Counted from the first letter of the stretch, positions 25,301-61,966 are shown. The stretch is DNA of 64,000 bases from Candidatus Babeliales bacterium (GCA_963743635.1 CAVUQO010000003.1:64001-128000); one strand, 5' to 3'. Program-made: numbers and translations. Notes: a model not told the origin generated them from the letters alone.

Positions 25301-26005
25301 ATGATGAAATATGGATTAATGTTGAGCTTGATCGTGAGTACAAGTTTATCAGCGATGGAAGTACGTAAAGATCTTCAGGGTTTAACGTATGAACAACTCA
25401 AACAGCGAGAACGAGAGAACGAAGGGCGAGAAAGAGTGTTTCAGCGAAAATATGCTCATGATGCATGGCGTTATGATGATAATATTAAGAAAGAAAGAGA
25501 TGCTATTTATAATGAGGGGCGTGCATTAAGAACTGCAATTATGATGGGCGGAGTTATACCCCGAGAGCTCATTAAACCACATAGTGCTGCCAAGAATCAA
25601 CCGGTTGTGAATGATTTTGATGGCGATGATGAGGATATTATATTTACTCAAAAACCTCCATTAAAGCGATCTCCTAGTTTTCTTGAGGACAATGATAAGG
25701 CAGCTGATAAAACAGTAGAATCCAACTCAAAGACGGTGGCTAAGGCATTAACTTTTGAAGAGATTTTTAACGCCAACAGTGTACAAAAACCAAAAAAAAT
25801 AAAAATTGCAGATCAGGATGAAGATAGTTTGAAATCGAAAGTAGCTGCTTTGCAGGCCAAGCAAGATGAACTTCTTTCTTTAAGCACTCAAGACAAGAAT
25901 GAGTTAGCGCAAATGGCAGATCGATTAGATGCAATTGGAGATGAGTTATACGCGCTTCAAGAGCAATTAAAAGCATTGCGTAACAATGTAAATTCAAGAT
26001 TATAA
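25301..26005 (+). CDS. Secreted hypothetical coiled-coil protein
   Basis: Signal peptide MMKYGLMLSLIVSTSLSA|ME; heptad-rich C-terminus. Confidence 0.7.
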   Translation: MMKYGLMLSLIVSTSLSAMEVRKDLQGLTYEQLKQRERENEGRERVFQRKYAHDAWRYDDNIKKERDAIYNEGRALRTAIMMGGVIPRELIKPHSAAKNQPVVNDFDGDDEDIIFTQKPPLKRSPSFLEDNDKAADKTVESNSKTVAKALTFEEIFNANSVQKPKKIKIADQDEDSLKSKVAALQAKQDELLSLSTQDKNELAQMADRLDAIGDELYALQEQLKALRNNVNSRL

Positions 26006-26016
26006 AGGGACGTAAA

Positions 26017-26307
26017 ATGGTTAAATATGGGATGATACTGGGCTTGATTATAAGCTCAGTGCTTTGTTTTGCCGCTGATAAACCAAAATGCGATACTTGC
26101 AAATTACATAGAACAGGGACAAATGAGAACGATAATTCTAAGAGGGAAGAGGCTCTATTCTCAGCTCTATCAGATGTTAAAACCAAGCTAAGCAATACTA
26201 CGGATGCGAATGAGCAGAAAAAACTTAAACAGGGGCAAGAAAAGCTTAAGATTCAGCTGGGCCAACTGCTATTGCAATCTTTAGATGAACATGAGGACGC
26301 AAAATAA
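26017..26307 (+). CDS. Small secreted hypothetical protein
   Basis: Signal peptide MVKYGMILGLIISSVLCFA; SD AAGGGA; operon spacing. Confidence 0.65.
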   Translation: MVKYGMILGLIISSVLCFAADKPKCDTCKLHRTGTNENDNSKREEALFSALSDVKTKLSNTTDANEQKKLKQGQEKLKIQLGQLLLQSLDEHEDAK

Positions 26308-26864
26308 TGATGAAATATCTAGTAACTGCAAGCATAATGAGCTCAAGCATATTAGTTGCAGGCATACCCAATAATCTTTTATCTATGGCGTCAGCATTGC
26401 GTGCAGTTGCGGCATCTCGGAACTCAGTTCGAGCGTACAGCGCCAATCCAGAAAGAACTATAGATAGTCTCTTGCAGCAAGAAAACATGATTGTGCATGA
26501 AATAAATAAGCTTGAAAAAATGATGGGATATTGGATGGATCGGGAGATCGGGGAGCAATGCCTTAACCCTGGTAAATCATACTCCTATGAAATAAAAGTT
26601 TGTGCAGAAAAGAGAGAAAATCTACGTAAAAAACATGATTCAGTGACAAAAAAAATCTCCAAGAAAATTGAAGAAATGTATGACCAAAAAGATGAAGAAA
26701 GCCATTTACTGAAAAATCTTGGAGTATTAGATAGTCAATATCAGGTTGCTTGTCGAGAAGAGGATGACGGGTTTGATTTTACAAGATTTGACATTGAACG
26801 CAGAATTTTGTGTGAGAAAATCGATGCGTTAAAAAAAGAAAGATATTCAAACCCTCGTGGTTAA
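26307..26864 (+). CDS. Secreted hypothetical coiled-coil protein
   Basis: MMKYLVTASIMSSSILVA N-terminus; start overlaps the previous stop. Confidence 0.65.
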   Translation: MMKYLVTASIMSSSILVAGIPNNLLSMASALRAVAASRNSVRAYSANPERTIDSLLQQENMIVHEINKLEKMMGYWMDREIGEQCLNPGKSYSYEIKVCAEKRENLRKKHDSVTKKISKKIEEMYDQKDEESHLLKNLGVLDSQYQVACREEDDGFDFTRFDIERRILCEKIDALKKERYSNPRG

Positions 26865-27766
26865 ATCAACTGCTTTAACGAATTCGCTGATTTTTCCAAT
26901 AACTTCTTTTCCTCATCATTCAATTTAATATCAATGCGACGTTCGACGCCACGCCTTCCCAACACCACCGGCATATTCAGGCATAGTTTGAATTCTTCGA
27001 TGTAGGTCGAGACCGGCACAATCAAATGCTGATTAAATAACACACACTCGCAGAGAGCCGCTACGCAGGCAGCAACGCCAAAGAACGTAGCGCCTTTGCA
27101 TTTAATGATCTCATATGCTTTGTTTTTGGTTTGTTCTGCCATGTCATCAAGATCTTTTTTATTGATCCCTGGATATTCAAGGAGTGGCACGCAACCAACA
27201 TAGGCGCACGACCATGCAGGAAATTGCGTATCGCCATGCTCGCCCAAGATATATGTGCTGATCGATCGTTCTGAGATGGTTAGCTTGTTTGCGAGAGTTA
27301 CATTTATGCGTTGCGAATCGAGCATGGTGCCAGAGCCTATGATTTGGGTGCGCGGAATATTTGCAATGTTTTGCGCAAGAAGGGTCATGATATCAACGGG
27401 ATTGGTAACCATGATGATAATGGTTTCAGGATTGAGAGGCGTAATCGATTTCATAACCGAGCTAATAATCCCGCGATTTTTGGCAACCAATTCGGTGCGC
27501 GTTTGATCCGGTTTTTGTGCGACGCCCGCTGCGATAATAATAATATCTGCATCTTTGGTATCATCCACTGAACCAATACGAATATCTGAAGAACTATGAA
27601 ATGAGAGTGCATCTGAAAGATCGAGCACCTCTCCCGAGCAACGCACTTCATCGATATCGATTAACACAATTTCGGCTGCAATATTTTTAAGTAAGATAGC
27701 ATAGGCTGTTGTTGCTCCAACGGAACCGGCGCCAATAATAGCTATTTTTGAAGATTTCATAATCAT
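26861..27766 (-). CDS. ldh: L-lactate dehydrogenase (LDH/MDH family)
   Basis: IIGAGSVG, AGVAQKPDQTR (Gln suggests LDH), VTNPVD, GTMLDSQR, ILGEHGD. Confidence 0.9.
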   Translation of the reverse strand: MIMKSSKIAIIGAGSVGATTAYAILLKNIAAEIVLIDIDEVRCSGEVLDLSDALSFHSSSDIRIGSVDDTKDADIIIIAAGVAQKPDQTRTELVAKNRGIISSVMKSITPLNPETIIIMVTNPVDIMTLLAQNIANIPRTQIIGSGTMLDSQRINVTLANKLTISERSISTYILGEHGDTQFPAWSCAYVGCVPLLEYPGINKKDLDDMAEQTKNKAYEIIKCKGATFFGVAACVAALCECVLFNQHLIVPVSTYIEEFKLCLNMPVVLGRRGVERRIDIKLNDEEKKLLEKSANSLKQLI

Positions 27767-27964
27767 CCTTTTTTGACTTTATTCAACATTTAATAGTTTT
27801 TAACAATTTTTTATAAATTTTTAATACAATTCTATTGTTATCACAAAAAAATACCTTACAATAATCATATTATTGAGATCAAATGCTAATCTTTGAAAAT
27901 TCTTAATAAAAGCAGATTTATAAAAGAGATATAGAAACTATTAATCCTAATAAGGAGGCTACCC

Positions 27965-28039
27965 ATGGCAGATAAAAAGAAAAAACCAGCAGCTAAACCA
28001 GCAGCTAAAAAAGATGACAAAAACAAGAAGAAGAAATAG
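27965..28039 (+). CDS. 24-aa Lys-rich peptide MADKKKKPAAKPAAKKDDKNKKKK, copy 1
   Basis: SD AGGAGG upstream; same peptide as copy 2 with only synonymous differences. Confidence 0.8.
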   Translation: MADKKKKPAAKPAAKKDDKNKKKK

Positions 28040-28073
28040 TCAGACATAACCAATTATTGCTAGGAGGATTCCC

Positions 28074-28148
28074 ATGGCAGATAAGAAGAAAAAGCCAGCA
28101 GCTAAACCAGCGGCTAAAAAAGACGACAAAAACAAAAAGAAGAAGTAA
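28074..28148 (+). CDS. 24-aa Lys-rich peptide MADKKKKPAAKPAAKKDDKNKKKK, copy 2
   Basis: SD AGGAGG upstream; terminator downstream. Confidence 0.8.
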   Translation: MADKKKKPAAKPAAKKDDKNKKKK

Positions 28149-28210
28149 ATTCAGCCTTCGTTTATCCAGGCCTTCTGGCTTGGCAAACTACGGCGTGACT
28201 TAATTTTTTT

Positions 28211-28247
28211 AAAATACGGGCGGCATAAAAACTGCCCGTATTTTTTT
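28211..28247 (+). terminator. Intrinsic terminator after the twin peptide genes
   Basis: aaaatacgggcgg-loop-ctgcccgtattttttt. Confidence 0.8.
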
Positions 28248-28264
28248 AACCATTAAAAATCTAT

Positions 28265-29086
28265 ATGAACATCACCAAGCAAAAATTATTATCATTCCGA
28301 GATTTTATCTGGGCCTTCTATGAAAAAGAAGGAAGAAGATTTGAGTGGCGCAATGTAGATAATCCATACTACGTTCTAGTATCGGAAATCATGCTCCAAC
28401 AAACCCAGACCTATCGGGTTGAGCCCAAATATCAGGCATTTATAGCAGAGTTTCCTAATTTTGAAGCACTTGCGCAGGCATCATTGCGCGATGTGCTCGG
28501 CATGTGGCAGGGGTTGGGGTATAATCGACGTGGAAAATTTCTACATCAAACCGCTCAACGCGTGGTGCAAGAGTATGCGGGAAATCTACCCGATGACCCT
28601 GAACTGCTTGTCACTTTCCCCGGCATTGGAAAAAACACCGCCGGATCTGTTACCGCATTTGCATTCAATAAGCCGACCGTTTTTATTGAGACCAATATTC
28701 GCACGGTTTTTATTCATTCATTTTTTAAAAATCAAGAATCGGTCCACGATAATCTCATCTTACCGCTTGTAGAGCAAACGGTTGATCAGGATAATCCGCG
28801 CGAATGGTATTACGCGCTCATGGATTATGGCGTGCATCTTAAAAAATCGATGCCCAACCCAAGCCGCCGCAGCAAGCATCACGTTATACAATCTAAATTT
28901 GAAGGCTCAGATCGACAAATTCGCGGCGCAATCATTCGTGCGCTCGTCGAGCGTCCCTCGCTCTCTGAATCAGAATTGAGCATTATCTGCAAGAATGATG
29001 CACGGGTATCCAACATCATCCAGGAACTGGAGCAAGAGCAATTGATCGAACGTAAAAATGATATGTTTTGCATTCGCAATGCATGA
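28265..29086 (+). CDS. mutY: A/G-specific adenine glycosylase, short MutY-like form without Fe-S cysteines
   Basis: VSEIMLQQTQ, WQGLGYNRR, HhH FPGIGKNTA, ALMDYG. Confidence 0.85.
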   Translation: MNITKQKLLSFRDFIWAFYEKEGRRFEWRNVDNPYYVLVSEIMLQQTQTYRVEPKYQAFIAEFPNFEALAQASLRDVLGMWQGLGYNRRGKFLHQTAQRVVQEYAGNLPDDPELLVTFPGIGKNTAGSVTAFAFNKPTVFIETNIRTVFIHSFFKNQESVHDNLILPLVEQTVDQDNPREWYYALMDYGVHLKKSMPNPSRRSKHHVIQSKFEGSDRQIRGAIIRALVERPSLSESELSIICKNDARVSNIIQELEQEQLIERKNDMFCIRNA

Positions 29087-29151
29087 AAAAATGCGCCGAT
29101 TTTACTCAGCGCATTTTCATTTTCTTAGATATAAAACAAGAGCTTCTTGTT

Positions 29152-30018
29152 TTACACGCCCCGATAAAGGGTCATTCTATAATTGTGATTCAGTTGGTCT
29201 AACAATGTTTTGTTTTTGGTGTTGCGGTATTGAACGCATGCTTGGTATAAAAGGTAAGTAGACATTTGGCTAGCGGTTGAGGGATCAAGATGTGAGAATC
29301 TTTGTGCTATTAATGTTGCTATATTTGCGCGTGTACATTGCAATTGGGCGCTTTTTAATCGTGCCAATTGCGCATCTAGCCGCGCATCGGATATTGGCCC
29401 TGAAGAAGAAAAGACTATATTTTTTTTAGCGTATTTTCTGTAGGCATCGATAAATTCAGATCTAATTTCATCAGGTGTACTACTATCACGGTGAGAGGCT
29501 GCAACAACAGTTTGTACCAAAAGAACATCCACAGCTCTCCCTTTTAGGTCGGACACTTCTTCTATACGATTAGGCCAATTCCCCTTTGCTCGTTCTTGTA
29601 TATAAAAATCCCGCGTTTCGATTTTTTTACGGTCTTTATCATCTATGTCAAAGTGTCCAGATATTCCTTCGCAAGGATCACTGCAATGATATATCATAGG
29701 CATTGTATATACCGTTTTACCGATTTTATAAACCCTTAATTTGCCGAAATCATCCGTATAATTTACATCCGCCAAGCTACCTACAATCTGTTGCATATCG
29801 CCTTCAAATGCTGCTTGTACTTGTTGAGTTAAATCGGCTTTATTTTGCGCGATTTGGGCGGCTAGCTGGGCTGCATGTGTCTCAAAAGGCGACGACTCGG
29901 CATGGGGCGATCGCACGACGGAACAATCTTCCTCGTCAGTTCTAAATGCACTCATGGCCTGCGTGTTGACTGCACCAGCTAAGAGATATGCTATCGCAAA
30001 GTATTTGATAGATTTCAT
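29152..30018 (-). CDS. Secreted hypothetical protein
   Basis: Signal peptide ...AVNTQA|MS; SD AAGGA. Confidence 0.7.
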   Translation of the reverse strand: MKSIKYFAIAYLLAGAVNTQAMSAFRTDEEDCSVVRSPHAESSPFETHAAQLAAQIAQNKADLTQQVQAAFEGDMQQIVGSLADVNYTDDFGKLRVYKIGKTVYTMPMIYHCSDPCEGISGHFDIDDKDRKKIETRDFYIQERAKGNWPNRIEEVSDLKGRAVDVLLVQTVVAASHRDSSTPDEIRSEFIDAYRKYAKKNIVFSSSGPISDARLDAQLARLKSAQLQCTRANIATLIAQRFSHLDPSTASQMSTYLLYQACVQYRNTKNKTLLDQLNHNYRMTLYRGV

Positions 30019-30235
30019 CTGAAATCCTTTCGTAATAATTGGTTATATGTACTTACTGTGTTATGCATACACGGTTATCTATTATACCAAAGCGCATAAA
30101 AAACTATAGTTAAAAGTAAGTTTTATACAAATGATCACTGTAAGCAAAATGCAAAGCGATCGTTTTGTTTTGTTATTTCAAGCGGGTGGTATAATTTGAT
30201 TCATTTGAATACGTATATTATTAGAAGGACATTCA

Positions 30236-31058
30236 ATGAATATAATACGGCCGGCTATCTTTTGCGTGATAATGAGTATCTCTTTTTTCTGCGCACGCCA
30301 TTTCTTTAAAAGTAGCATCTTCTCTGACTTTAGTGAGTGCTGCCATTTCGGCTTCTACATCATATGCCGCTATTCAAAAATGTGGCGTCTACATTAGTCC
30401 TGAGATGACGGAAACGATGCACGTAGCTCTTGCCGCGGGATCGACGAGTGCTAACGCTGCAGGAACTTTTTGGTGGTTATATAAAAAGACGCCGCAAGGG
30501 CGTATGCGTGATGCAGGCAAAGAGCTTGATCGCATAAGCTCAGTTCTCTCATTAGATTCGATCAAAAAGGCTGATATGCCAGTAGCTGATTTTGAAGCTG
30601 AGGTATTGAAGCGCGCAGAGCGCGCAAATGCGCGAGATCCATTTCCTGTAGTGAAAACAGCGAGGGATTTAGAAGAATATGATAAACGTGTGATGAAGGT
30701 AGGAGTGCTCTTGCAAAAAGCCCATGCAGATATTTGGCCCCTCGATGATGTATTATTGGAGCGCCATGCACAGGTAAGTGGGCGAGCGGATGAAGTAGGA
30801 AATATTGTTAAAGATATGTTGGTGAAGATTAAAAGTACGCCAGAATATGCCAAGCATTTGAAATATCATAATGAAAAGCATGCTCAGGATAATCAGGCAG
30901 ACGCGCAGCATCAACAAGCAACTGCCCAAAAACGGATGGTATGGGTGGGTGTAGCGAACGCTGCCGTTAATGCAGTGTCTGCTACCGCGCAGGGGGCTAT
31001 TGCCGTTGCAAAATTGGCTAAATCGGCGATTGATCCATTCAATCCTTTTAAGAGATAA
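30236..31058 (+). CDS. Secreted hypothetical protein; one extra T in a T-run at 30283-30288 separates the signal peptide from the body
   Basis: ATG 30236 has SD GAAGGA. Removing one T gives MNIIRPAIFCVIMSISFSAHA|ISLKV, in frame with ORF 30333-31058. Confidence 0.6.
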
Positions 31059-31135
31059 ATCCCTTTAAACAGGCGTTTTCTCTCCTAAAAATACCCTTTC
31101 TTGCTATTTGTAATTCCTTACGGTAAGATGAAAGT

Positions 31136-34161: not shown

Positions 34162-35151
34162 TTAAAATAGATAAGTTATATAATCTTTTGTTTTTCCAAT
34201 TTTTTCTGCATATGGAAAAACACCCTCAATAACCATCCTCTTATCCGCTTGAGCCTTAGAACGAAGGTGAAAGTGATAAGTGTTTCGAGAATATCCCCTT
34301 ATATGATATTTCGTCATTGCAGCATCAACAGCCGTCTCTGTGTCTGTTGTATTATCCAGAAAGGTATAACCGCAGGATAATGCTTCATGATATTGTTTCT
34401 CAGCTGGAAGATCGGGCGAAATTCTAGAAAATAAGGCTTCTAGCGCTGGTTTCTTAGATGCCACATATAAAGACACGGCTTTCCTTGTAATGAGTAGTAT
34501 GCAATTATGTAACAGATTATTCAGCTGTTCCACAGTACGATTACTGTTTGCCTCATACTGCGAGTCCCGTTTAAGATCATTAAGTGTTTTTTGATAAGCT
34601 GTGATTATCGAATCCGATTGTTTCCCAGTGATCCGATTGGTGATGTTCAGTACATTTATTTCATAATCTTTTAGAGCAAGATCTAGCTTTGCAAAATTTT
34701 CTTGCGCTTTTGCAGCGTCGGTAGGTTCTATGCTATAAAAGTTCCATATCTCTAAAATATCTTTTACACATGAATCGATAATTTGTTCCACCTCAGGCCG
34801 TGTGGTCTCAGCAAAAGAAATAAGCTCTTGGAGCGCCTGTTCTCTTGTTATTACACTTTGTTGTTGCGAATCAGAGGTTGATGGCAAGCTTTCGGTTACT
34901 TGCTCTTTTTCATAAGTACGCTCTTCTATTGCAGAATTAAATTGCAGAGCTTTTTTATCTCCCTGTCGTGGAGCTTTTTTAAGAATTGATTTTTTAGTAG
35001 GAGTTGATGGAGAAGAGGTCGAGGGGGATTCGGTGTGTGAGGAGCTACTGCTTTCTGAATTACCCTTAATAGAAGGGCTTGCTTCTTCCATAGCGTGGAT
35101 CATGGGAGTTAAGTAGATGATGGTTGCAAGTATATAATAAATGTTGTGCAT
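34162..35151 (-). CDS. Secreted hypothetical protein with Ser-rich linker
   Basis: Signal peptide ...PMIHA|MEE; SD AAGGAG. Confidence 0.7.
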   Translation of the reverse strand: MHNIYYILATIIYLTPMIHAMEEASPSIKGNSESSSSSHTESPSTSSPSTPTKKSILKKAPRQGDKKALQFNSAIEERTYEKEQVTESLPSTSDSQQQSVITREQALQELISFAETTRPEVEQIIDSCVKDILEIWNFYSIEPTDAAKAQENFAKLDLALKDYEINVLNITNRITGKQSDSIITAYQKTLNDLKRDSQYEANSNRTVEQLNNLLHNCILLITRKAVSLYVASKKPALEALFSRISPDLPAEKQYHEALSCGYTFLDNTTDTETAVDAAMTKYHIRGYSRNTYHFHLRSKAQADKRMVIEGVFPYAEKIGKTKDYITYLF

Positions 35152-36717: not shown

Positions 36718-37176
36718 TTATGTTGTAAATGTACGGGCAGGAATTTCTTTGATGTAATGGATACAAAGTTCTTTAACGTCTTTCTCAAGAGGCCTTAAAA
36801 GATCGAATGGGTGGACGATTAATCGCTCCGAATGATATGGATTTTTGGCGTCCAATGCAACTGTTCTTATAATGATAGTATTATAATATTGCCTTACATT
36901 ACCAATATACTTATGGTTTTCTATGGGGTTAGATTTAATGAGCCCTATAATATCAGTTAAGTTATCTATCGCGTTCCCAATAATGGAATTTTTGATATTG
37001 TGCACTATCTTATCTTCGAGGCTTTTAAATGATGGTGATTCTCGAATTACATCGTTAATCAGTTCCGCCTGCGGGTGTTGCGGCTCATCCAGCATCATCT
37101 GTTGGTTATTCATGGCGCTTGCACGTCCACAAACTGCCAGCGCTACCAGCGCCATAACTTGAAAATATTTTTTCAT
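36718..37176 (-). CDS. Secreted orphan protein, array member 1
   Basis: Likely true start MKKYFQVMALVALAVCGRASA|MNN at 37176; signal peptide paralogous to that of the 37483 ORF. Confidence 0.7.
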   Translation of the reverse strand: MKKYFQVMALVALAVCGRASAMNNQQMMLDEPQHPQAELINDVIRESPSFKSLEDKIVHNIKNSIIGNAIDNLTDIIGLIKSNPIENHKYIGNVRQYYNTIIIRTVALDAKNPYHSERLIVHPFDLLRPLEKDVKELCIHYIKEIPARTFTT

Positions 37177-37228: not shown

Positions 37229-37483
37229 CTATGGGTGCGAGTGCTCTTGTTGCATAGACATCTGCGGATGCGGCTGCTGTTGCTGCATTGGCATCTGCGC
37301 ATGCGGCTGCTCTTGCTGTAGTTGCATTGCAATTATTGGTGGCATTGGTGCTTGTGGGTGTTGTTGTTCTTGTTGAGGCATTAGCGCTTGCGGGTGCGGC
37401 TGCTCTTGTCCGTTATACATGGCTCTTGCGCGTCCATAAACGGCCAGTGCTATGAGTGCCATAACTTTAAAGTATTTTTTCAT
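37229..37483 (-). CDS. Small secreted Gln/Pro/His-repeat protein, array member 2
   Basis: MKKYFKVMALIALAVYGRARA|MYN; repeated QEQPHPQ-like units; SD AAGGA. Confidence 0.7.
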   Translation of the reverse strand: MKKYFKVMALIALAVYGRARAMYNGQEQPHPQALMPQQEQQHPQAPMPPIIAMQLQQEQPHAQMPMQQQQPHPQMSMQQEHSHP

Positions 37484-37553: not shown

Positions 37554-37988
37554 TTAATTATTATTGTTATTGTTATTATTGTTGTTCGGTTGAACTGGTG
37601 CAGCGGGATCCTGAGGAGCAATCTGATAAATCAGACGTATCATTTCTATCTTCTCGCGTAATAGAATAAATGCTCGTCTGCTTGCTTTTCCATTGAATGA
37701 GGCGACGCGATCAAGCTCTGCGCCCAAATTCACGATTTCTTGAGCACGGCCTTGTAACGCAACGGTAAGCAATTCAGGGTTTCCAAAACGATTCTTTATG
37801 AACCTAGTCATATCGATACACGCAGAGTTGATCTGGCTCGTTCTAATTTTGTTATGTATATTGGCGATTTTTTGGTCGTCGGTAAGATTTGATGTTTCAT
37901 CATCCGATGAATCCAAATCATTATTCATTGCAAAAATATTTCCCGCTGAAGCAACGAGTAGGGCAGTTAGAAGATATAATTTTTTCAT
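37554..37988 (-). CDS. Secreted orphan protein with poly-Asn tail, array member 3
   Basis: MKKLYLLTALLVASAGNIFA|MNN ... PNNNNNNNNNN. Confidence 0.75.
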   Translation of the reverse strand: MKKLYLLTALLVASAGNIFAMNNDLDSSDDETSNLTDDQKIANIHNKIRTSQINSACIDMTRFIKNRFGNPELLTVALQGRAQEIVNLGAELDRVASFNGKASRRAFILLREKIEMIRLIYQIAPQDPAAPVQPNNNNNNNNNN

Positions 37989-38003
37989 GAAAAGTCCGTA
38001 AAT

Positions 38004-38141
38004 ATGGTTTAGATACTAATATATTGTCATATATTAGTCTACTATAATGTTTTCTATTAGTCAAATGGGTAAGGATACAGGAGTGGTGTCAGCCAAAGGC
38101 AGGGATCAAACCTGTGAAATAGGTAGGATGCAGGTTCGATG
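38004..38141 (-). repeat. 138-bp upstream/promoter block, copy 1 (sigma70-like TTGACT-17-TAGACT at 38036-38064)
   Basis: Differs at 2 positions from 38767-38904. Confidence 0.85.
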
Positions 38142-38275
38142 AGGTTACCCAGGCTTGCGTCTACGCTCTGGTCATCTTGATCCTGAGCGCGCCGAAGGTA
38201 ACGAAGGACGTCGTATAGGTCGCTTTTAGTCGGTACAAAGTAGTCGGGCAGCGTCCGACGAGCGAAGTTGAAAAT

Positions 38276-38327: not shown

Positions 38328-38750
38328 TTAGTTGTTGTTATTATTGTTCTGTTGTGCATTATTCATTATTGTTCTTACTCGTCCAATCTGAGTGTTTAAA
38401 TTTAAATTGAGAGCAGTTCTTGGTAGGTGTGGTTGAATTCTTGTATTGAGATTTTGAACAATTTGAAAAGCATGGGCTGACCCTTGCATTGTTGGATTCT
38501 GTTTAATGAGATCAAGCCAATCAAGCAGCGTCTCACGAACTTCTGTATAGTCAGGATTGGTCTGATTGAGTTGGTTAGCCTCTTGAAACTGATTTGCAGC
38601 TTGAATTGCATGGCCAGCATGAGTGGTTTGCTCAAGCGGATCAATAAGTATGGATTGCGGACGAGCGCTTTCCGTGTCGTCTGGCTCATTAGCAAAAATA
38701 TTTCCTGCTGAAGCAACGAGTAAGGCAGTTAAAAGATAAACTTTTTTCAT
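38328..38750 (-). CDS. Secreted orphan protein with poly-Asn tail, array member 4
   Basis: MKKVYLLTALLVASAGNIFA|NEP ... QQNNNNNN. Confidence 0.75.
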   Translation of the reverse strand: MKKVYLLTALLVASAGNIFANEPDDTESARPQSILIDPLEQTTHAGHAIQAANQFQEANQLNQTNPDYTEVRETLLDWLDLIKQNPTMQGSAHAFQIVQNLNTRIQPHLPRTALNLNLNTQIGRVRTIMNNAQQNNNNNN

Positions 38751-38766
38751 TTAAAATCCCTAAAAA

Positions 38767-38904
38767 ATGGTTTAGATACTAATATATTGTCATATATTAG
38801 TCTACTATAATGTTTTCTATTAGTCGAATGGGTAAGGATACAGGAGTGGTGTCAGCCAAAGACAGGGATCAAACCTGTGAAATAGGTAGGATGCAGGTTC
38901 GATG
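38767..38904 (-). repeat. 138-bp upstream/promoter block, copy 2
   Basis: Direct repeat of 38004-38141. Confidence 0.85.
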
Positions 38905-38971
38905 GGGCTTTAAATAGTAAAGGCACATACGAAGATGTGCCTTTGAGTATCATATTTTTAGAGAATATTGA

Positions 38972-39412
38972 TTATTGAGGGTTATTCATGATGTCTTCAT
39001 CAAGGTTGCTTGGATTCCCGCTTCTTACGGGGGAGATACTTGGGCACCGGATAATTTCTTTTAAGGTGCTTAAGCGCTCAGGGAGATCCCTGAATACAGG
39101 CGTACTCGATTGTCCTTTAAAGGACGCGAGAGAAAGAATCACTCCTGCAACACCTTCCACTACAGCCAAAGATTCAAGCGCGTCAGATGAATGTGGATTT
39201 TCTTCGATAGATGTTAATAGTTGCAGCACTTCACGTGTAGCAGGTCCAAGTTCCCTCTTTGTAATATGTTCTTGGATAGTTTGATGGAATTCAACAGGCG
39301 ACCGGCTTTGTTCGTTATCCGAATCCCAGCCTGAGCCTTCATGCGAATTCATCGTAAATATAATGATATTTGTTACAAGCAGCAACGCTGCTAAGAGTTG
39401 TTTTTTGTTCAT
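38972..39412 (-). CDS. Secreted orphan protein, array member 5
   Basis: MNKKQLLAALLLVTNIIIFT|MNS; SD GGAGG; own TTGACA-16-TATACT promoter; terminator at 38919-38944. Confidence 0.7.
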   Translation of the reverse strand: MNKKQLLAALLLVTNIIIFTMNSHEGSGWDSDNEQSRSPVEFHQTIQEHITKRELGPATREVLQLLTSIEENPHSSDALESLAVVEGVAGVILSLASFKGQSSTPVFRDLPERLSTLKEIIRCPSISPVRSGNPSNLDEDIMNNPQ

Positions 39413-48474: not shown

Positions 48475-49545
48475 TCACGATGGACTGTGTAACACAACCT
48501 TAAGCCCACGGAATTGTTTTTTCAATTTCGTGCGGAGCATTTGCATAATGAGATATGCGCAGCTTCTAAAGAGTTGTTGCTCTAAGGCCTTCGTTTCTCG
48601 TACTGGCTTATCAAATGATACCGTCAAATAGTAGCGTTTCGGTTCGAGTGTGAATGAAATATCGCCGCAGTTAAGATTCTTGACTAAGGTGTCGATCCAT
48701 GCGCGGGTGATTTCTACCATTTCTTCGGTCCAGAATATTTTTTCAGGAGCATTTGATTCAGCTGATTCAAACTCGCGTTCTTTTGGCGCTGTTTGATGTG
48801 ATTCATAGTCACCTGCAGGAGCGGCAGGTCTTGGAGTTTGTTCTCGGCGAACTAGTTCACGCACCATTGGCTCACGACGTTCTTGAGGTTCGCGCGGTTC
48901 ACGTGCTTCACGAGGCTCGCGGGGTTCGCGACGCTCTTGAGCTTCACGCGGTTCGCGGCGTTCTCGAATTTCACGATGTTCGCTACGCTCGCGAGGTTCA
49001 CGTTGTTCGCGCTCGCGTGGCTCACGCACTACCGGTTCTCGATATTCGCGCGTCTCTCTTGATTCGCGTGGTTCACGCGGTTCGCGGACCATTGGTTCTC
49101 GATATTCACGTGTTTCTCGTGATTCACGAGGCTCGCGCGGTTCACGACGTTCGTGTTGTTCGCGCGATTCACGGTACTCGCGTCCTTCGCGTTCGCGTGG
49201 CTCTCTATATTCACGAGGCTCGCGCGATTCGCGTGGTGATGACTCATAGCGTGATGATTCTTTGCGGGCTGATTCTTTAGGATGTGTACTGAAAACTGGC
49301 TGTTCTGATGGATGCGCAGTTGGTTTGTGCCGAGCCGCATGTTCTTTTTGCTCTTTATAAGATAATTTTTTTTCAACATGCTTAAAAAAGAGACCAATTT
49401 TAGCTGACTTGGTAACCATCCCGAAAAAGTTCTTTTCAGGTTCTTCGAAAACTTTGACTGAAAATTCGTGCGGTTTTTCAGCGCGAATCCATGCTGCTTC
49501 TATAGCTTTAGCAATAGATGAAGCTTCTTCCATTATTGATTTCAT
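48475..49545 (-). CDS. jag: Jag/KhpB-like protein with long Arg-Glu-Pro repeat insert
   Basis: Jag_N-like N-terminus (EEASSIAKAIE...KVFEEPEKNFFG); upstream of mnmE as in the canonical jag-mnmE order. Confidence 0.7.
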   Translation of the reverse strand: MKSIMEEASSIAKAIEAAWIRAEKPHEFSVKVFEEPEKNFFGMVTKSAKIGLFFKHVEKKLSYKEQKEHAARHKPTAHPSEQPVFSTHPKESARKESSRYESSPRESREPREYREPREREGREYRESREQHERREPREPRESRETREYREPMVREPREPRESRETREYREPVVREPREREQREPRERSEHREIRERREPREAQERREPREPREAREPREPQERREPMVRELVRREQTPRPAAPAGDYESHQTAPKEREFESAESNAPEKIFWTEEMVEITRAWIDTLVKNLNCGDISFTLEPKRYYLTVSFDKPVRETKALEQQLFRSCAYLIMQMLRTKLKKQFRGLKVVLHSPS

Positions 49546-54577: not shown

Positions 54578-55324
54578 TTATGGACGAGCTATAATTATGA
54601 TAGCAGGCTTGGATGATTCTTTTTCGTATTGCAGCTGTTTGTATATCAATAAGCCGTAATTTTTTTGAATTTTTTTGCGAAGGGATTCGACTTCTTGGTC
54701 TTTTGTCTCTTTTGTATCTATGGTGAATGCATTAACTTCAGCTTGAACCTTATGGAGCAGTGGAGTAACAATGCAGACCTCTTCTTTTTTCTGTCTTTCG
54801 ATGAATGCAAGCAGCGCATGACCGAGTCCAAGGCGTAATTCATGAGCGAGTGGCGCTAATTCTTCATCACCAGCCGTTTCTTTATCAAAATTATTAACTT
54901 CATCTCTCAGGCTCGATAAGTTTTCAATTTGCTGATTTTTGCTCAGTAGATTGCGAGCATCTCGTTCATCAGTCGGCTCATTGAGAGTCGCTATTAGTTT
55001 TTGTGCTATCACGCTTCCGACACCCTGCATTGCCCCTTGAAAAACGCCTTGCACCGCTCCTTCAGCAGCAGCCTTTGCAAGAATTCCGGCAGCATTAACA
55101 ACGGGATTGTCGCTTACTGTTTGAGCCGTGAAGGTTGGTTGCTGGTGCGTGTGATACGTATTTTGTCCCGTGCTGTGCATAAAAACGTGTGGCGTATGAA
55201 CATTGGTTTCACCAGAACTGATATTGGTGCCTTGCTGTATCGGCCTTGGTGTTTCACCTTCCATAGCAAACATTGTTGCATTGATTGAAATAAGCGCCAC
55301 GATAAGACATTGTTTTTTGAACAT
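54578..55324 (-). CDS. Secreted hypothetical protein
   Basis: Signal peptide ...INATMFA|MEG; glycine-zipper-like segment (AAEGAVQGVFQGAMQG). Confidence 0.7.
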   Translation of the reverse strand: MFKKQCLIVALISINATMFAMEGETPRPIQQGTNISSGETNVHTPHVFMHSTGQNTYHTHQQPTFTAQTVSDNPVVNAAGILAKAAAEGAVQGVFQGAMQGVGSVIAQKLIATLNEPTDERDARNLLSKNQQIENLSSLRDEVNNFDKETAGDEELAPLAHELRLGLGHALLAFIERQKKEEVCIVTPLLHKVQAEVNAFTIDTKETKDQEVESLRKKIQKNYGLLIYKQLQYEKESSKPAIIIIARP

Positions 55325-55935: not shown

Positions 55936-56006
55936 AACGTGAACTCAATGTAAGTAACCTAATATTAAATGGTGATTTCATCATGAAATAAGTAAAATCC
56001 TCTCCT

Positions 56007-56224
56007 CCGTTCGTCTCGAGTGTTTCTATTCCTACGCGCAGCGTAGGAGAGAAATGTGCGAGAGATTTTAAATCAGATAATTCATATTTTAGTATGAAAT
56101 GCTTGGAAATTTTATGAGGAATATTATTTATCCACAATCTCTCGCACATTTCTCTCCCTTCGTCCTTCATTCCTTCGCTAAGCTCAGGATCAGGACTCGT
56201 GATAGAAACACTCGAGACGAACGG
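56007..56224. repeat. REPIN-like element with 23-bp outer and 22-bp inner perfect inverted repeats
   Basis: 56007-56029 pairs with 56202-56224; 56046-56067 pairs with 56136-56157. Confidence 0.85.
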
Positions 56225-56274
56225 GATAAGGAATAATTCTTTATCTATTAAGTTCGTAGATCGAGTTTTCGTTA

Positions 56275-58758
56275 TCATACTTTAGCCTGCGCTTCACTCA
56301 CCGCAACATGTGCGCGCCATAATTCACCAATTTGCTCAATAGAGTTCGCGTCACGCTTAGTTGTTACATAGGAGATGGTTTGTGCGCGGGTTGATCCCTT
56401 GATAAGTTGTTCATGTTTTTTGAGTTGTTCATGTAATGCAGGAGAACCATAGATTACGAGCGAGCTCAAATCAGCCTTGAGTGAAAGTTGCTGTTCGGTT
56501 TTGAGTTTGCGTACGGTGCCGATAATGTCGATAAACTGACGCATGGTGTTCGCACTGTCCGGGTATTGCGCGGTCTGCACGCCAAAACGTGTTTGATGCA
56601 AGGAGTTAACCTCAAAACTCTTTCGGTATAACTCTTGATAAATCGTTTCCGTTACAAATGGCAAGTATGGCGCATAAAGTTGCAGAATGCGTAAGCCAAC
56701 GGTGTAAAGCGTGTAGCGCGTTGCTTCCACTTCCTCTTTGCTATAAAGATCAGGATTGAATAATTGATCTTTGACGATCTCAAGATAATTGTCGCAGAAA
56801 TCATTCCAGAAGAACTGTTCAACGCTATTGAGCGCTAAACTGAATTCGTCATTTGCAAAATATGATTCGTACGCCGCGAAAGTTTTCGCTGCAGAATCAA
56901 TGATCCATTCATTGCATACACCAAGCTTCTCAGGAGCTTTAGTTTTTGGCTCATAGAGCGCGATATGATCTTTGGTGAATATGAATGCATTCCACAGCTT
57001 TGTAATGAGGCGGTGGCCAAGTTTGAGTTGTTGCTCGGAGAATGCAGTGTCTTGCCCTAACGTGCCCGATGCTGCCCAAAAGCGTATTGCGTCAGCGGAG
57101 TGCTGAGCGAGTAGCTCTTCCGGAGTGACTGCTTTTTGGCCTTTTGATTTTGATAATTTTTCTTTGTTATCACTCAGCACGTGACCAGTAACCACAATGT
57201 TGTGCCATGGAGTGGTATCGTTATGCATCCATGCTTTAATGATGGTGTAGAATCCCCAGGTACGAATAATATCATGACCTTGTGGACGCATGCCCATTGG
57301 CAAAAATTCTGCAATGCGCGGATCAGTAAACGGTGATTTCATATCATCGTAAAAATATGATGCGCAAATATACGGCGTCAGTGATGAAGTGTTCCATGTA
57401 TCCATGACGTCAGTATCTGGAGCTATATCGCTACTCTTGCATTCAGGGCAGGTTTTGCCGGGATATGCGGTTTCTTGCGGATCGATTGGCAATTGGCTTT
57501 CATCAGCGAGTAGAATTGCTTTGCATTGTTTGCAATGCCACGCCGGAAATGGAATGCCAAAGAATCGTTGGCGTGAAAGACCCCAATCCCATCCAATATT
57601 TTCAACCCAGTTTTTATATCGAGATTTCATGAATCCAGGATGCCAGGTAATTTGATCGGCGAGTTCAAGGAGTTTTTTCTTATGATCCATAATATTTAAG
57701 AACCATTGCGGCACTTCAATATATTCGATTTCTTTTTTGCAGCGTTCATGAACGTTTACTGAATGTTTAATCGGGCGTTGGCGAATCAGTAAATTCTTTG
57801 CTTTGAGTACTTCAAGAATGAGTGCGCGTGCAGCTTCAACTTTTAGTCCGGCTAAAATGCCAGTATTATCGGCCCATTTGCCATAAGGCAAAATCGATTC
57901 TTTGTACGGCAGTGTATATTTCTTGTACCATTCAATATCGGTCTTATCGCCAAAAGTGCAGCACATTACAAGGCCCGTTCCCTTTTCAGGATCAACTGCC
58001 TCATCAGCAAATACCGGCACTTCATATTCAAAAATAGGCACTATTGCCTTGGTATTTTTTAAGTATTGATAACGCACGTCATCCGGATGATAAAAGAGCG
58101 CAACGCAGGATGAAAGTAGTTCTGGACGGGTGGTGCCGATTAATAAATCGTTGCCTTTATGATCTTTAAAGACGATATCATTAAAGAAGGAATCTTTTTC
58201 CATATCATCAAGTTCAGCTTGCGCAACGGATGTTTGGCAGGTGGTGCAAAAGAGCGCAGGTTCTTGTTTGCGATAGATGAATCCCTTTTTATAGAGACGG
58301 ATAAATGATTCTTGGGAGATAGCGCGAACACGATCAGATATCGTTGAGTAACATCGATTCCAATCGGGGGAAAGGCCCATGCGCTGCCATAATGCCTTGA
58401 ACTGCTCTTCTGCCTCATGAGTTTCTGCAAGGCAAAGTTTGATAAATTCAGAGCGTGAAAATTGATGAGCGCTCTTTTGAATTTTTTTCTCAACGTACCG
58501 TTCAGTCGGCAGGCCGTTATCATCAAAACCACATGAATAATAGACAGAAAAACCGCTCATGCGTTTGTAGCGAACGATAACATCAGTTTGGCTATACGAG
58601 AAGATATGCCCAATATGAAGTGATCCAGATACCGTTGGAGGTGGCGCGTCAACGCTATAAAGTGGTCCTGGGTTATTTTCGGCTGTATAAGTTTGTTCTC
58701 GTTCCCAGAGGGCTTGCGCTTTTTCCTGGGCAATCGTGTGTTCGTATCGTTTATCCAT
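56275..58758 (-). CDS. valS: Valyl-tRNA synthetase (short, type 2-like)
   Basis: PPPTVSGSLHIGH, GTGLVMCCTFGD, DWGLSRQR, DVMDTW, PQGHDIIRTW, KLSKS. Confidence 0.96.
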   Translation of the reverse strand: MDKRYEHTIAQEKAQALWEREQTYTAENNPGPLYSVDAPPPTVSGSLHIGHIFSYSQTDVIVRYKRMSGFSVYYSCGFDDNGLPTERYVEKKIQKSAHQFSRSEFIKLCLAETHEAEEQFKALWQRMGLSPDWNRCYSTISDRVRAISQESFIRLYKKGFIYRKQEPALFCTTCQTSVAQAELDDMEKDSFFNDIVFKDHKGNDLLIGTTRPELLSSCVALFYHPDDVRYQYLKNTKAIVPIFEYEVPVFADEAVDPEKGTGLVMCCTFGDKTDIEWYKKYTLPYKESILPYGKWADNTGILAGLKVEAARALILEVLKAKNLLIRQRPIKHSVNVHERCKKEIEYIEVPQWFLNIMDHKKKLLELADQITWHPGFMKSRYKNWVENIGWDWGLSRQRFFGIPFPAWHCKQCKAILLADESQLPIDPQETAYPGKTCPECKSSDIAPDTDVMDTWNTSSLTPYICASYFYDDMKSPFTDPRIAEFLPMGMRPQGHDIIRTWGFYTIIKAWMHNDTTPWHNIVVTGHVLSDNKEKLSKSKGQKAVTPEELLAQHSADAIRFWAASGTLGQDTAFSEQQLKLGHRLITKLWNAFIFTKDHIALYEPKTKAPEKLGVCNEWIIDSAAKTFAAYESYFANDEFSLALNSVEQFFWNDFCDNYLEIVKDQLFNPDLYSKEEVEATRYTLYTVGLRILQLYAPYLPFVTETIYQELYRKSFEVNSLHQTRFGVQTAQYPDSANTMRQFIDIIGTVRKLKTEQQLSLKADLSSLVIYGSPALHEQLKKHEQLIKGSTRAQTISYVTTKRDANSIEQIGELWRAHVAVSEAQAKV

Positions 58759-58979
58759 GGATATATACTCAAAAATAGTCTTTAAATAGGCCTTATTAGT
58801 GTTCAGTGTAACACATGTAATTCTAGGGTCAAAAAGGGGATCGATGACTTGCCCTGCCTAAGGGTTTTGGCCGTCTATAGCTGGCCAATACGGTTTTTTT
58901 ATCTTTTAGGTCTGGTATACTAGAGGTTATAAGTTAATTTTTTTGTTAAATGTATCCTTTTTTAAAGTATGAGGTCGCG

Positions 58980-59720
58980 ATGAAACGTATCTATTTTTCA
59001 GGTTTGTTTATGGTATGCGGTATTGCGCTAGCGGTTGGGTTAAGTAATAAGGTAACGCAAAAAGTAACGCAATCGGTACAATCGGTACATGCTATTTCTG
59101 AAACGGAAACAAGTACCACTGAGTATCCATTTTCTGCCAACGGAACATTGAATGTTAATAATACCAATGGTTCAATTACTATCGAAAAGCATGATGCAGA
59201 TACGCTTGTTATAGAAAGTGTAAAGACGACGCATATAGGACATCTGAATGATATCGAAATTAAGATTTCAGTCATTAATGATGTTGCCACCATAGAAACA
59301 ATCGAGAAAAATCCACATTTAAAAGAAATCTGTACGCATGGGGCATCTGTGGATTATGTAATTAAGGTTCCTGCAAACACCATCGTACGTGCGAACAATG
59401 TGAATGGTTCTATCTCGAGCACAGGTATTAAAAACATTACTGCGCATACCGTCAATGGTTCAATCGATACTGATAACGTTGAACAAGCTCAATTAGAAAC
59501 AATATCGGGTGAAGTTTCAGCATCATTTTCGGGATCAGTGAAAGAAAGTTCTTTAAAATCAATCAATGGCAGCGTTAACGTTTCATTGCCTGCTTCATAT
59601 CAAGGATCAGTTGCTGCGAGTGCCATCAATGGCGCAGTGCATTCAGATTTCCCACGCGCTTGCAATGCGCAAGTTAATCTTGAAACTACTAATGGCAGTA
59701 TTCAGGCTATAAGAAGTTAA
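58980..59720 (+). CDS. DUF4097/adhesin-like beta-solenoid protein
   Basis: Repeated (T/V/I)NGSI motifs; N-terminal signal/anchor; SD GAGG. Confidence 0.8.
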   Translation: MKRIYFSGLFMVCGIALAVGLSNKVTQKVTQSVQSVHAISETETSTTEYPFSANGTLNVNNTNGSITIEKHDADTLVIESVKTTHIGHLNDIEIKISVINDVATIETIEKNPHLKEICTHGASVDYVIKVPANTIVRANNVNGSISSTGIKNITAHTVNGSIDTDNVEQAQLETISGEVSASFSGSVKESSLKSINGSVNVSLPASYQGSVAASAINGAVHSDFPRACNAQVNLETTNGSIQAIRS

Positions 59721-59779
59721 GTAGTTAAGTATTGAGATTTTTTGGCCCTCTGATTTGTAAAAATCAGGGGGTTTTTGTA
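59523..59779 (+). repeat. ~255-bp direct repeat, copy 1 (DUF4097 3' end plus terminator)
   Basis: Matches ~61090-61348; near-identical in the 3' ~170 bp. Confidence 0.9.
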
Positions 59780-59884
59780 TACGAAGTTCTGTGAGCCAAA
59801 TTTAAAAAGTGCTTAAAAAAAGATAAACTTCCTTCAATGAATCAGTAAGAAGCAAAGGAAGGAAGCAGGAATGATAGGACTTTA

Positions 59885-60883
59885 TTATGTCTTTTCATCA
59901 GATTCTGTCTTGGATACCTCATCATTCTGTTCATTCTTATTTTCTAATGCAAGACGACGAGCTTTAAGGCGCTCTGCACGGAAGTAAGGACTCGGGTGTT
60001 CGTCATGCAAATATAAAAGTTCTGTAAGCTGAGGGTATTTTTCCCAGAATGTATAAGGAATAAGAGATGTAAACGGTCTCTGATACCAAGGGAATGCAGA
60101 AGGATAATGTTTAAGCATTACCATTGTAGTATCGTGTAATTCTCTGTGTGTTTTTTCACTGGCTTCTAATAATTCAGCATCGTTGGGGATTGCATCATCG
60201 GCACGCATTTCATCATATTTAGAATATAATGTCGTTGCCATGGTATGGGCCAAATACATACCTGCTCCTACGAGCGTGGCAGCGCAACATTGTAGAAAAT
60301 TATTTTTGGGCATAGAAAGCATTATTTTAATTGCTGCAGCGTTGGTTATGAGGCTGCTTGCAAGTATGGCATTTGGTTTATTGCTTGATGAGTTATTTTT
60401 CATATGTCCAAGTTCATGATGGAATGTTGCTTTTAACCAATTTATTCGATCTTTATCGACTGTGTTATCTGGATTCATCGAATCTAAAAGCGTTTCGTAA
60501 TATTTTTTCTTAATGAGAACCAGGTTTAAGTCTGTAAATGTCCCCATAACATCCATTTTTTCTGATGGAAGGATAGTGATGTTCTTTAATCCGTGATGTT
60601 TATCTGCCAAGTCTTTTAAATGGCTTTGTAATGCAGGTTCATAGTCTTTGACGTCAGAGGCAAGTTCAACATCGTGGAGTTTTCCGCTGTTGTCATTTTT
60701 CTTAACATCATATGGTCGCAGACATATTTCAGGGCACAATTTTCTTAGAGCGTATTGCGCAGCGGTGATAGCCATTGCTGCCATCGGCAGTATAGTTGGA
60801 TCAAAGGTTATGCTCTTCGCGGGGACGGTTTGCCCCAAAAATGCTCCTGCAAGCAGGAATGAGAATATTTTATTCATTTTCAT
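59885..60883 (-). CDS. M48-like zinc metallopeptidase with signal peptide
   Basis: FHHELGH (HExxH), DEMRADD, EHPSPYFRA. Confidence 0.75.
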   Translation of the reverse strand: MKMNKIFSFLLAGAFLGQTVPAKSITFDPTILPMAAMAITAAQYALRKLCPEICLRPYDVKKNDNSGKLHDVELASDVKDYEPALQSHLKDLADKHHGLKNITILPSEKMDVMGTFTDLNLVLIKKKYYETLLDSMNPDNTVDKDRINWLKATFHHELGHMKNNSSSNKPNAILASSLITNAAAIKIMLSMPKNNFLQCCAATLVGAGMYLAHTMATTLYSKYDEMRADDAIPNDAELLEASEKTHRELHDTTMVMLKHYPSAFPWYQRPFTSLIPYTFWEKYPQLTELLYLHDEHPSPYFRAERLKARRLALENKNEQNDEVSKTESDEKT

Positions 60884-61089
60884 GGTTATTTACCTTAATG
60901 AGACTTTAAATAGCCTATTTGAGCTCTATATCATACTAAAAGTATACCATGTGTTTCCCAGGTAGAAAAATGCCCCATAAAGAGAGCTTCTAGGAGCGCT
61001 TATCGTATTTTTTGAACCTGGGGTGGGGCGATTAAAAAATGGAATTACAGCCAAGAAGGTGTTTTATAGGTTAAAATTAAATGATAATT

Positions 61090-61348
61090 ATCCTATTCGG
61101 GATTAGTAAAACAGAGTTCTTTAAAATTAATTAACGGCAGTATTAACATTTCACTGCCTGCTTTATACCAAGGATCAGTTGCTGCGAGTGCCATAAATGG
61201 CGCAGTGCATTCAGATTTCCCACGCGCTTGCAATGCGCAAGTTAATCTTGAAACTACTAATGGCAGTATTCAGGCTATAAGAAGTTAAGTAGTTAAGTAC
61301 TGAGATTTTTTGGCCCTCTGATTTGTAAAAATCAGGGGGGTTTTTATA
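61090..61348 (+). pseudogene. Duplicated 3' fragment of the DUF4097 gene plus terminator (repeat copy 2)
   Basis: Same ...GSVAASAINGAVHSDFPRACNAQVNLETTNGSIQAIRS* coding tail, without a start. Confidence 0.8.
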
Positions 61349-61471
61349 TGTTTTTTCCCAATTGTGCCGCTTGCAGTAAGAATAATTTAGGCCGGCGATA
61401 GCTATTGCCCAAAGATTGGATCAAAAAGGATTATGCTGGGTTGTTGATCAATGTAGAGTAAGGGTAAGAGA

Positions 61472-61966
61472 TTATTTCAGGATTGTTTTTATCGTATTGT
61501 AGATTTCTATATGGTCGAGATAAAGATGTTCGTTTTTAACTATAACATATAGATGTTTTTCTATATCGCATTGATTATTGAGATTATTGAATTCTTTTTT
61601 ATATTGTTCGATGTGATTTTTCAAATTCACATCAGTTTTAATTTTTGCGAGTAAAGGCTTTGCTTGCTGAAGCCAAGCAGGCATCACCTTGTTAGCTTCT
61701 GTTATAGATTTTTCTGCTTGAATGGCCCAACCTTGCACTTTTCCAGCTGTTTTTGTGTCCATTGCCGATTTATCTTCGCTATTCCTGTGCATCACCTTGT
61801 CAGCTTCATCTACAGCTTTATCAGTATCACGAGCTGTATTCTTCCCGTGAGTATGAATTATGCCTTGTATGATGGCTGTAGTTATAAAAACTTTATCCAT
61901 GGCGCATGCTACACTGCCAAGCGTCAGGCCTAACGATGCAATTACTGATAACAATTTGTGATTCAT
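61472..61966 (-). CDS. Secreted hypothetical protein
   Basis: Signal peptide ...GSVACA|MDK; SD AAGGAG. Confidence 0.7.
   Translation of the reverse strand: MNHKLLSVIASLGLTLGSVACAMDKVFITTAIIQGIIHTHGKNTARDTDKAVDEADKVMHRNSEDKSAMDTKTAGKVQGWAIQAEKSITEANKVMPAWLQQAKPLLAKIKTDVNLKNHIEQYKKEFNNLNNQCDIEKHLYVIVKNEHLYLDHIEIYNTIKTILK

Follow-up and report, generated by a model that had tools for sequence, protein, structure and literature searches.

The 64-kb stretch of Candidatus Babeliales bacterium DNA analysed here (CAVUQO010000003.1:64001-128000, G+C ~40%; hereafter the window) carries nine genes for exported orphan proteins whose predicted signal peptide is followed directly by a methionine. They were listed in a preliminary description, which read the shared junction as a signature of candidate effectors, and all nine open reading frames (ORFs) are present: the one starting at 25301 on the plus strand and those starting at 30018, 35151, 37176, 37483, 37988, 39412, 55324 and 61966 on the minus strand. 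Each codes for an n-region that is short and either basic or polar, followed by a hydrophobic core and by Ala (Thr in 39412) directly before Met. Judging from the sequence, the upstream ATG led by a Shine-Dalgarno (SD) site is the start of all nine genes, and the signal peptides they encode are of the Sec type (signal peptidase I, SPase I, class). The residues right after the predicted signal peptide, Met followed by Asp, Glu or Asn (Met-[D/E/N]), are, by their conservation, under purifying selection in these lineage-specific proteins.

The genes are designated by the coordinate of their start. Gene 25301 (25301..26005, plus strand) codes for a 234-residue exported orphan with a signal peptide of codons 1–18, an LSA/ME junction (Met at 25355) and a C-terminal coiled-coil-like region; the Pfam/NCBIfam matches of the protein are all sub-threshold. 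Two tandem exported orphans follow on the same strand (26017-26307 and 26307-26864); their signal peptides are like that of 25301, and their best predicted site is without Met. The similarity found by BLASTP between 25301 and 26017 is limited to the signal peptide. The other eight genes lie on the minus strand. Gene 30018 (29152..30018, 288 residues) has a TQA/MS junction with Met at 29955, and its homolog search returned only itself. Gene 35151 (34162..35151, 329 residues) has an IHA/ME junction with Met at 35091; its start and signal peptide (35066-35151) lie inside the last 86 nt of a photolyase ORF on the same strand, with a strong SD of their own. Gene 37176 (36718..37176, 152 residues, ASA/MN, Met at 37113) begins at the second ATG in its frame, a choice supported by its paralog 37483 and by the SD site; its TTG-initiated frame reaches back over the 3' end of the 37483 ORF. 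The latter (37229..37483, 84 residues, ARA/MY, Met at 37420) is a short Q/P-rich ORF that consists of repeats of 33 and 36 nt and has the signal peptide of 37176; it may be a duplicate, either truncated or expanding. Gene 37988 (37554..37988, 144 residues) has an IFA/MN junction with Met at 37928. Its paralog 38750 (38328..38750, minus strand) has a near-identical signal peptide and an IFA/NE junction, 6 nt that 37988 has, the ATG among them, being missing. Both end in poly-Asn (10 and 6 Asn; 37554-37590 and 38328-38360), and the tails of their homologs are Asn-rich too. Gene 39412 (38972..39412, 146 residues, IFT/MN, Met at 39352) has its own promoter-like site at 39497-39470. Gene 55324 (54578..55324, 248 residues, MFA/ME, Met at 55264) codes for a Gly/Ala-rich hydrophobic stretch and then helices, and gene 61966 (61472..61966, 164 residues) has an ACA/MD junction with Met at 61900. 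All nine Met codons were checked as ATG. The proteins had been called unrelated, which is overstated: BLASTP groups 37176 with 37483, and 37988 with 38750 and 39412. Since two pairs are paralogs, the nine represent seven independent families.

Signal peptides were judged by eye or with a crude heuristic of our own, based on the (-3,-1) residues and hydrophobicity and blind to the +1 residue, so that all cleavage sites given here are predicted ones. The best site of the heuristic is directly before Met in 7/9 proteins and a lower-ranked candidate in 37988 and 39412. An n-region, an uncharged h-region of ~8–15 residues and a total length of ~18–25 are found in all nine, whose lengths are 18–22. 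The -1 residue is Ala in 8/9 and Thr in 39412, while -3 is, in gene order, L, T, I, A, A, I, I, M and A. Other export signals were not found in the nine. There is no lipobox with Cys at +1, which is always Met (L-A-G-C occurs only in the Pal-like 42853 gene), and no RR before the h-region that would indicate a twin-arginine translocation (Tat) signal. Leaders of type IV prepilins are short, basic and Gly-ended, with Phe or Met at +1, Glu at +5 and a hydrophobic helix after the cut; in the nine proteins the hydrophobic stretch precedes Met, -1 is Ala or Thr and no pattern of Glu at +5 is seen, so that no prepilin or pseudopilin leader is present.

The frequency of Met after these signal peptides is above background. 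Among 1079 ORF-proteins from 80 loci of other bacteria (1.22 Mb, not of the same phylum as the window), where Met makes up 2.0% of residues, the same heuristic finds 87 signal-peptide-like sequences, with Met at the best +1 in 1/87 and at any candidate site in 3/87. The window has Met in 9/20 signal-peptide genes (denominator counted by eye; Fisher p = 7e-6 vs 3/87), or in 7/18 when paralogs are counted once (also by eye; p = 1e-4). Nor is the feature shared by all exported proteins. Within the window it is found in 9/12 exported orphans (26017, 26307 and 38750 being without it) and in 0/8 conserved envelope proteins (p = 0.0014), namely the secretin, a porin-like protein, clostripain, an M16 peptidase, an ABC binding protein, Pal and the 58950 and 59885 proteins; the earlier remark that GspD, the porin and clostripain lack the pattern holds at the level of predicted sites. 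When all six frames were scanned, 39 of 161 first-ATG ORFs of at least 50 codons had signal-peptide-like N-termini, spurious antisense ORFs included. A site followed by Met was found in nine, which are eight of the nine genes plus the dubious 26307, and in none of the spurious ORFs. The bias extends to the next residue: +2 is D/E/N in 7/9 window proteins, the exceptions being Met-Ser (30018) and Met-Tyr (37483), compared with 15/87 at +2 of background signal peptides and 6/28 at residue 2 of the conserved genes of the window. D/E/N occupy 22% of positions +3 to +20 in the same proteins, and the probability of six or more of seven families having them at +2 is 7e-4.

Conservation was sampled in three protein families beside the window. 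The family of 37988 and 39412 (alignment A4, eight sequences, five of them from other sources) has 17–35% identity to the window protein and keeps Met in 7/8 members, the exception being 38750. In the family of 35151 (A3, nine sequences, 27–47% identity) Met is present in 6/7 members with a signal peptide, P0018 having Phe, and two more sequences begin at the Met. The family of 55324 (A5, seven sequences, 67–96% identity) has it in 7/7. Met is thus kept in 20/22 signal-peptide-bearing members, and in 16/17 homologs from outside the window; +2 is D/E/N in 20/20 of the Met-bearing ones. Among mature columns that of Met ranks in the top 4 of 96 (A4) and the top 27 of 264 (A3), and Met and the residue at +2 are conserved more strongly than those at -1 and -3. 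Leu, Ile or Val never replaces Met, for which the only exceptions are one Phe and one 6-nt deletion. The deletion is that of 38750, whose nearest relative, P0008, has an LFA/MD junction with Met present. The homologs keep their signal peptides with conservative changes; their -1 residue is A, T, S or G, and Pro once (P0017), and the site before Met is the best of the heuristic in 11/17 and a candidate in 16/17. This conservation, together with the excess of D/E/N, points to purifying selection on a small residue followed by Met-[D/E/N]. As the pattern is genuine, conserved in evolution and confined to orphans, there is support for the proposal that it marks some class of exported proteins.

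Little is recognisable in the mature proteins. None of the orphans scores above cut-off in Pfam/NCBIfam; sub-threshold matches to Nucleoprot-TPR, IcmG/DotF, CD1247 and staphylocoagulase were set aside, as they look like coiled-coil or low-complexity noise. Searches against PDB sequences gave nothing credible, and an Atlas search of 35151 gave no usable match. In the structural model of 35151 the first 98 residues (signal peptide and a Ser-rich acidic linker) are disordered, and residues 100–329 form an all-helical domain with a predicted local distance difference test (pLDDT) score above 90; a fold search of this domain against the PDB gave no match (best E = 0.016, TM score 0.19–0.26), nor does its sequence match any PDB entry. 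The 55324 family is poorly modelled (mean pLDDT 51). Its Gly/Ala-rich hydrophobic stretch (residues ~75–115; 54800-55090) is near-invariant in the seven members while the flanks vary, and could be membrane-inserting.

The best GatB match, among the matches listed with one genome per species, is that of Candidatus Dependentiae UBA12474 (60% identity), and the gene order RuvA-Jag-MnmE-Pal-RNase G-GatB in the window (39.5–50.8 kb) is the same as in UBA12474 locus L001. On this basis we regard the source organism as belonging to Dependentiae (TM6) or as related to them. No close relative was among the matches listed; of the loci obtained with GatB, L001 and L002 were of use for context, and the others formed the unrelated background. 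Relatedness, synteny, an ATP/ADP translocase and a secretin are all found, as in a Dependentiae-like bacterium, on the evidence of the genes. The content of the window includes the TLC ATP/ADP translocase, a PilM-secretin cluster, GatB, two M16 peptidases, a clostripain-like peptidase and a broken enolase. The secretin cluster (534..5350, plus strand) codes for a PilM-like protein, a protein of no assigned function and a secretin of the GspD/PilQ type; it is a candidate outer-membrane export route.

The strength of pairing with the anti-SD sequence separates the two ATG codons of each gene. The mean is -5.8 kcal/mol at the nine first ATGs (7/9 at or below -4) and -3.8 kcal/mol at 21 conserved gene starts (57% at or below -4), against -1.2 kcal/mol at the nine internal ATGs (2/9) and -2.1 kcal/mol at 124 ordinary in-frame internal ATGs (20%). 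The strong SD sites stand at the first ATGs and not at the internal ones, from which it follows that the signal peptides are translated; a second start that depends on an SD is unlikely. The artefact of an extended ORF whose true start is the internal Met was likewise rejected, given the SD at the first ATGs, the signal peptides conserved in homologs and the spurious ORFs that lack Met; a leaderless internal transcript was considered and set aside, a -10-like hexamer preceding the internal ATG in only ~2 genes by eye. The preliminary description had offered, as one alternative, that the internal ATG gives a cytoplasmic form without signal peptide beside the exported form. Such a second start would explain why the ATG is strictly conserved without Leu, Ile or Val in its place, why Met is kept even when -1 is Pro (P0017) or Thr, and why public gene callers sometimes pick it (P0011, P0014 and P0019 are annotated as starting exactly at Met). 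It is nevertheless disfavoured, and we regard it as unlikely: SD-independent initiation aside, the internal ATGs are no better than ordinary ones, D/E/N at +2 is atypical of starts in this DNA, and there is no evident cytoplasmic role for acidic disordered orphans nor, within the window, any gene seen for a type III secretion system. Where checked, moreover, the short call is a difference in start choice, since P0011 (312 residues) and P0020 (333 residues, with signal peptide) belong to the same 90% cluster and are both on 3985-bp contigs; for the same reason the homologs that lack a signal peptide were rejected as proof of grafting. In the public calls of P0041, P0038 and P0034 the chosen start is another Met within the signal peptide; P0041 (313 residues) is the call for the 35151 gene itself. 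Calls disagree for P0011/P0020, P0017/P0021, P0034, P0038 and P0041, and the signal peptide is often wholly or partly cut off. As callers start at Mets inside or just after it, exported proteins of this clade are under-annotated and listed as cytoplasmic. A different origin of the Met, also raised earlier, is that signal peptides were grafted onto existing genes: a promoter-plus-signal-peptide module would have been copied or converted onto fast-evolving genes, joining at or beside the start codon of the recipient, which would survive as a functionless relic. The 5' module of 37988 (37919..38143, minus strand; promoter-like site, 5' untranslated region and signal peptide, about -155 to +70 relative to the ATG) has a second copy ahead of 38750 (38687..38905, minus strand). 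The ~225 nt are ~95% identical; past the junction identity falls to ~50% in nucleotides and 33% in amino acids, with the break within ~10 nt of the junction. Genes 37176 and 37483 share a tract of 73 nt at 85% identity, which begins at the ATG and covers nothing beyond the signal peptide. These near-identical 5' tracts that end at the junction suggest that promoter-plus-leader modules are exchanged or homogenised between paralogs; a DNA cassette common to all nine 5' regions was looked for and rejected, since DNA is shared within the two paralog pairs and not among the other 5' regions. The relic also gains from the similar signal peptides of 25301, 26017 and 26307, whose mature parts have no detectable similarity, and from the confinement of Met to orphans, which are presumably young genes. 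Grafting has real support in the module that ends at the junction in one paralog pair. It leaves unexplained the persistence of Met in 20/22 homologs, which in two diverged families are 17–47% identical and hold it among their best-kept columns with no drift to Leu, Ile or Val, as well as D/E/N at +2 far above the 6/28 of ordinary genes. In the one clear module exchange, furthermore, the 38750 copy lost the ATG rather than gained it, its nearest relative P0008 having Met. The relic is accordingly held to be improbable.

Two further explanations concern the protein. Cleavage might fall elsewhere, in which case the conserved Met-acidic pair would simply close the signal-peptide region or open the linker, its position at +1 being an artefact of inspection by eye. 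Other sites do score as well or better in 37988, in members of the 55324 family (an INA site) and in several homologs, and the residues at -1 in P0017 (Pro) and in 39412, P0005, P0013 and P0028 (Thr) fit such an account; we consider it very unlikely all the same, for the site before Met is the heuristic's first choice in most window proteins and homologs and at least a candidate in 16/17 of the latter, orthologs do not share the alternative sites but do share the small residue followed by Met, and the signal peptides that result have normal lengths. The other possibility is a sorting or processing mark, Met-[D/E/N] being read inside the bacterium for handover to a secretin like that of the type II secretion system (T2SS), to vesicles or to a dedicated peptidase. 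The motif stands at the new N-terminus of a single class of exported proteins, and the window codes for the secretin cluster and for two large M16 peptidases, of which one carries a signal peptide. Residue rules of this kind operate elsewhere, as in the +2 rule of lipoproteins and the +1 Phe of the plastid ASAFAP motif. No candidate reader was found in the analysis, however, and we know of no linear N-terminal signal in T2SS substrates, so that a mark of this sort seems highly improbable here.

The bias at +2 is explained neither by start-codon nor by signal-peptide contexts, and a reading at the protein level is therefore favoured over a relic and over a second start. A selected mature N-terminus, probably host-facing, is proposed tentatively, with somewhat less than even confidence, from the patterns described above. 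SPase I would cut before Met, so that the exported protein would begin with Met-[D/E/N], and selection would keep that N-terminus rather than the ATG codon. Proteins made of a disordered linker and a helical domain might then be released towards the host by a T2SS-like secretin or by vesicles. Their acidic end with Met retained would resemble an ordinary eukaryotic cytosolic N-terminus, of the NatB class and not of the Arg/N-degron type, and a protein delivered to the host could escape N-terminal degradation or become acetylated. NatB is specific for Met-Asp/Glu/Asn/Gln N-termini and is, to our knowledge, the only system that reads exactly these; the earlier remark on NatB-type termini fits, the pattern extending to D/E/N at +2 in the window proteins and family members counted above. 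A precedent for the fate of a Sec-secreted toxin in the host cytosol being set by the residue it exposes is listeriolysin O, as Schnupf et al. reportedly found in 2007. A bacterial reader of the same motif, acting in a second export step, would be a close alternative. It is doubtful that the full proposal holds, in which cleavage manufactures a eukaryote-style Met-Asp/Glu/Asn end on Dependentiae effectors that is read by the acetylation or N-degron machinery of the host; contact with the host, exit through the T2SS and acetylation are conjectural for these proteins.

Several observations weigh against a selected, host-facing N-terminus. The sites are predicted, and the heuristic prefers another one in 37988, P0005, P0006, P0007, P0017, P0018 and P0028. 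In P0017 the Pro at -1 should be unacceptable to SPase I, yet Met is kept, and -1 is Thr in 39412, P0005, P0013 and P0028. The Met-Ser and Met-Tyr of two window proteins are not of NatB type, and NatB works mainly on nascent chains, co-translationally. Avoidance of degradation alone does not demand Met, since Ala, Ser or Gly at +1 is equally stable in the eukaryotic cytosol. Locus L001 of Dependentiae has two signal-peptide proteins without Met. Export past the periplasm and contact with the host cytosol are speculative and drew no support from this analysis.

Other features of the window lie outside this question. The two M16 peptidase genes (19791-25272) are in tandem and code for unusually long double-M16 (pitrilysin-like) proteins of 877 and 925 residues, the second of which has the signal peptide; the pair lies directly upstream of the orphan trio 25301-26864. 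The region 16550-16900 is a likely chromosomal origin, with eight DnaA-box-like 9-mers in two opposed arrays (16636-16745 on the minus strand and 16848-16889 on the plus strand), an A+T-only stretch at ~16580-16620 and a GC skew whose sign flips near 16 kb. Enolase is found in two incomplete pieces on the minus strand (Enolase_C, 5910-6443; Enolase_N, 6669-6998), after which ~2 kb (7000-9100) hold short ORFs only; it looks like a decaying glycolysis gene. The Jag-like gene (48475-49545) has internal tandem repeats of 9, 27 and 54 nt at 48872-49234 and no Pfam match, and its L001 homolog is alignable only at the ends.

Dependentiae are widespread parasites of protists in which nearly half of the genes code for signal peptides and most of those genes are ORFans, as stated in the portion of the source drawn upon (PMC6561590). 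If the interpretation is correct, the combination of a signal peptide and M[DEN] would mark their host-delivered proteins and allow candidate effectors to be predicted cheaply across whole proteomes. It would be a second lineage-specific "+1 rule" for SPase I substrates after the Q-rule of Bacteroidetes, the first limited to one functional class, and would connect the processing of signal peptides in bacteria with N-terminal quality control in eukaryotes in a way that can be tested. We know of no rule that separates host-directed from ordinary envelope proteins in Dependentiae, nor of injection systems in these bacteria. A full-text word search of open-access papers turned up no account of a Met that follows the signal peptide, whether in effectors or in Dependentiae.

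Within the phylum, TM6 genomes share a T2SS and two copies of gspD, according to the part of the genome report used here (PMC4776705). Chromulinavorax destructans, an obligate intracellular parasite of a protist, provides the closest context: signal peptides are predicted for 44% of its coding sequences, an exported set in which ORFans are over-represented and which is proposed to include effectors (PMC6561590). A Met-[D/E/N] junction is absent from the sections of that account considered here (PMC6561590). The closest known phenomenon is the Q-rule, by which SPase I substrates of Bacteroidetes have Gln at +1 that is cyclised to pyroglutamate (PMC5837995). As in the window, it is a lineage-specific enriched +1 residue found by tallying predicted sites, and it is thought, in the sections of the report relied on, to protect the new N-terminus (PMC5837995). 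It differs in that the residue is Gln, most SPase I substrates in all compartments are concerned and the modifying enzyme is known (PMC5837995). The mark described here consists of Met plus D/E/N, is limited to 9/12 orphans and to none of the eight conserved envelope proteins, and no modifying enzyme was found for it; Gln at +1 does not occur among the predicted sites of the window.

Listeriolysin O is comparable in that its stability in the host cytosol is reportedly set by the residue exposed on removal of the signal peptide. That case concerns one toxin and a destabilising residue, whereas the sequences of the window suggest a stabilising, host-like Met-acidic end across many families. The NatB class is matched at +1/+2 by 7/9 window proteins and 20/20 Met-bearing family members; NatB acts on nascent chains at the ribosome, and acetylation of an imported bacterial protein is hypothetical here. 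Residues at or after a cleavage site direct the next trafficking step in the PEXEL proteins of Plasmodium, in the ASAFAP motif of diatoms and cryptophytes with its +1 Phe and in the +2 rule of lipoproteins, which differ in organism, residue and machinery. Finally, conotoxins and the lipoprotein families of Mycoplasma and Borrelia have, like 37988 and 38750, a 5' leader far better conserved than the mature part. In the window the conserved tract also takes in ~155 nt of upstream DNA, which points to gene conversion of a promoter-plus-leader module.

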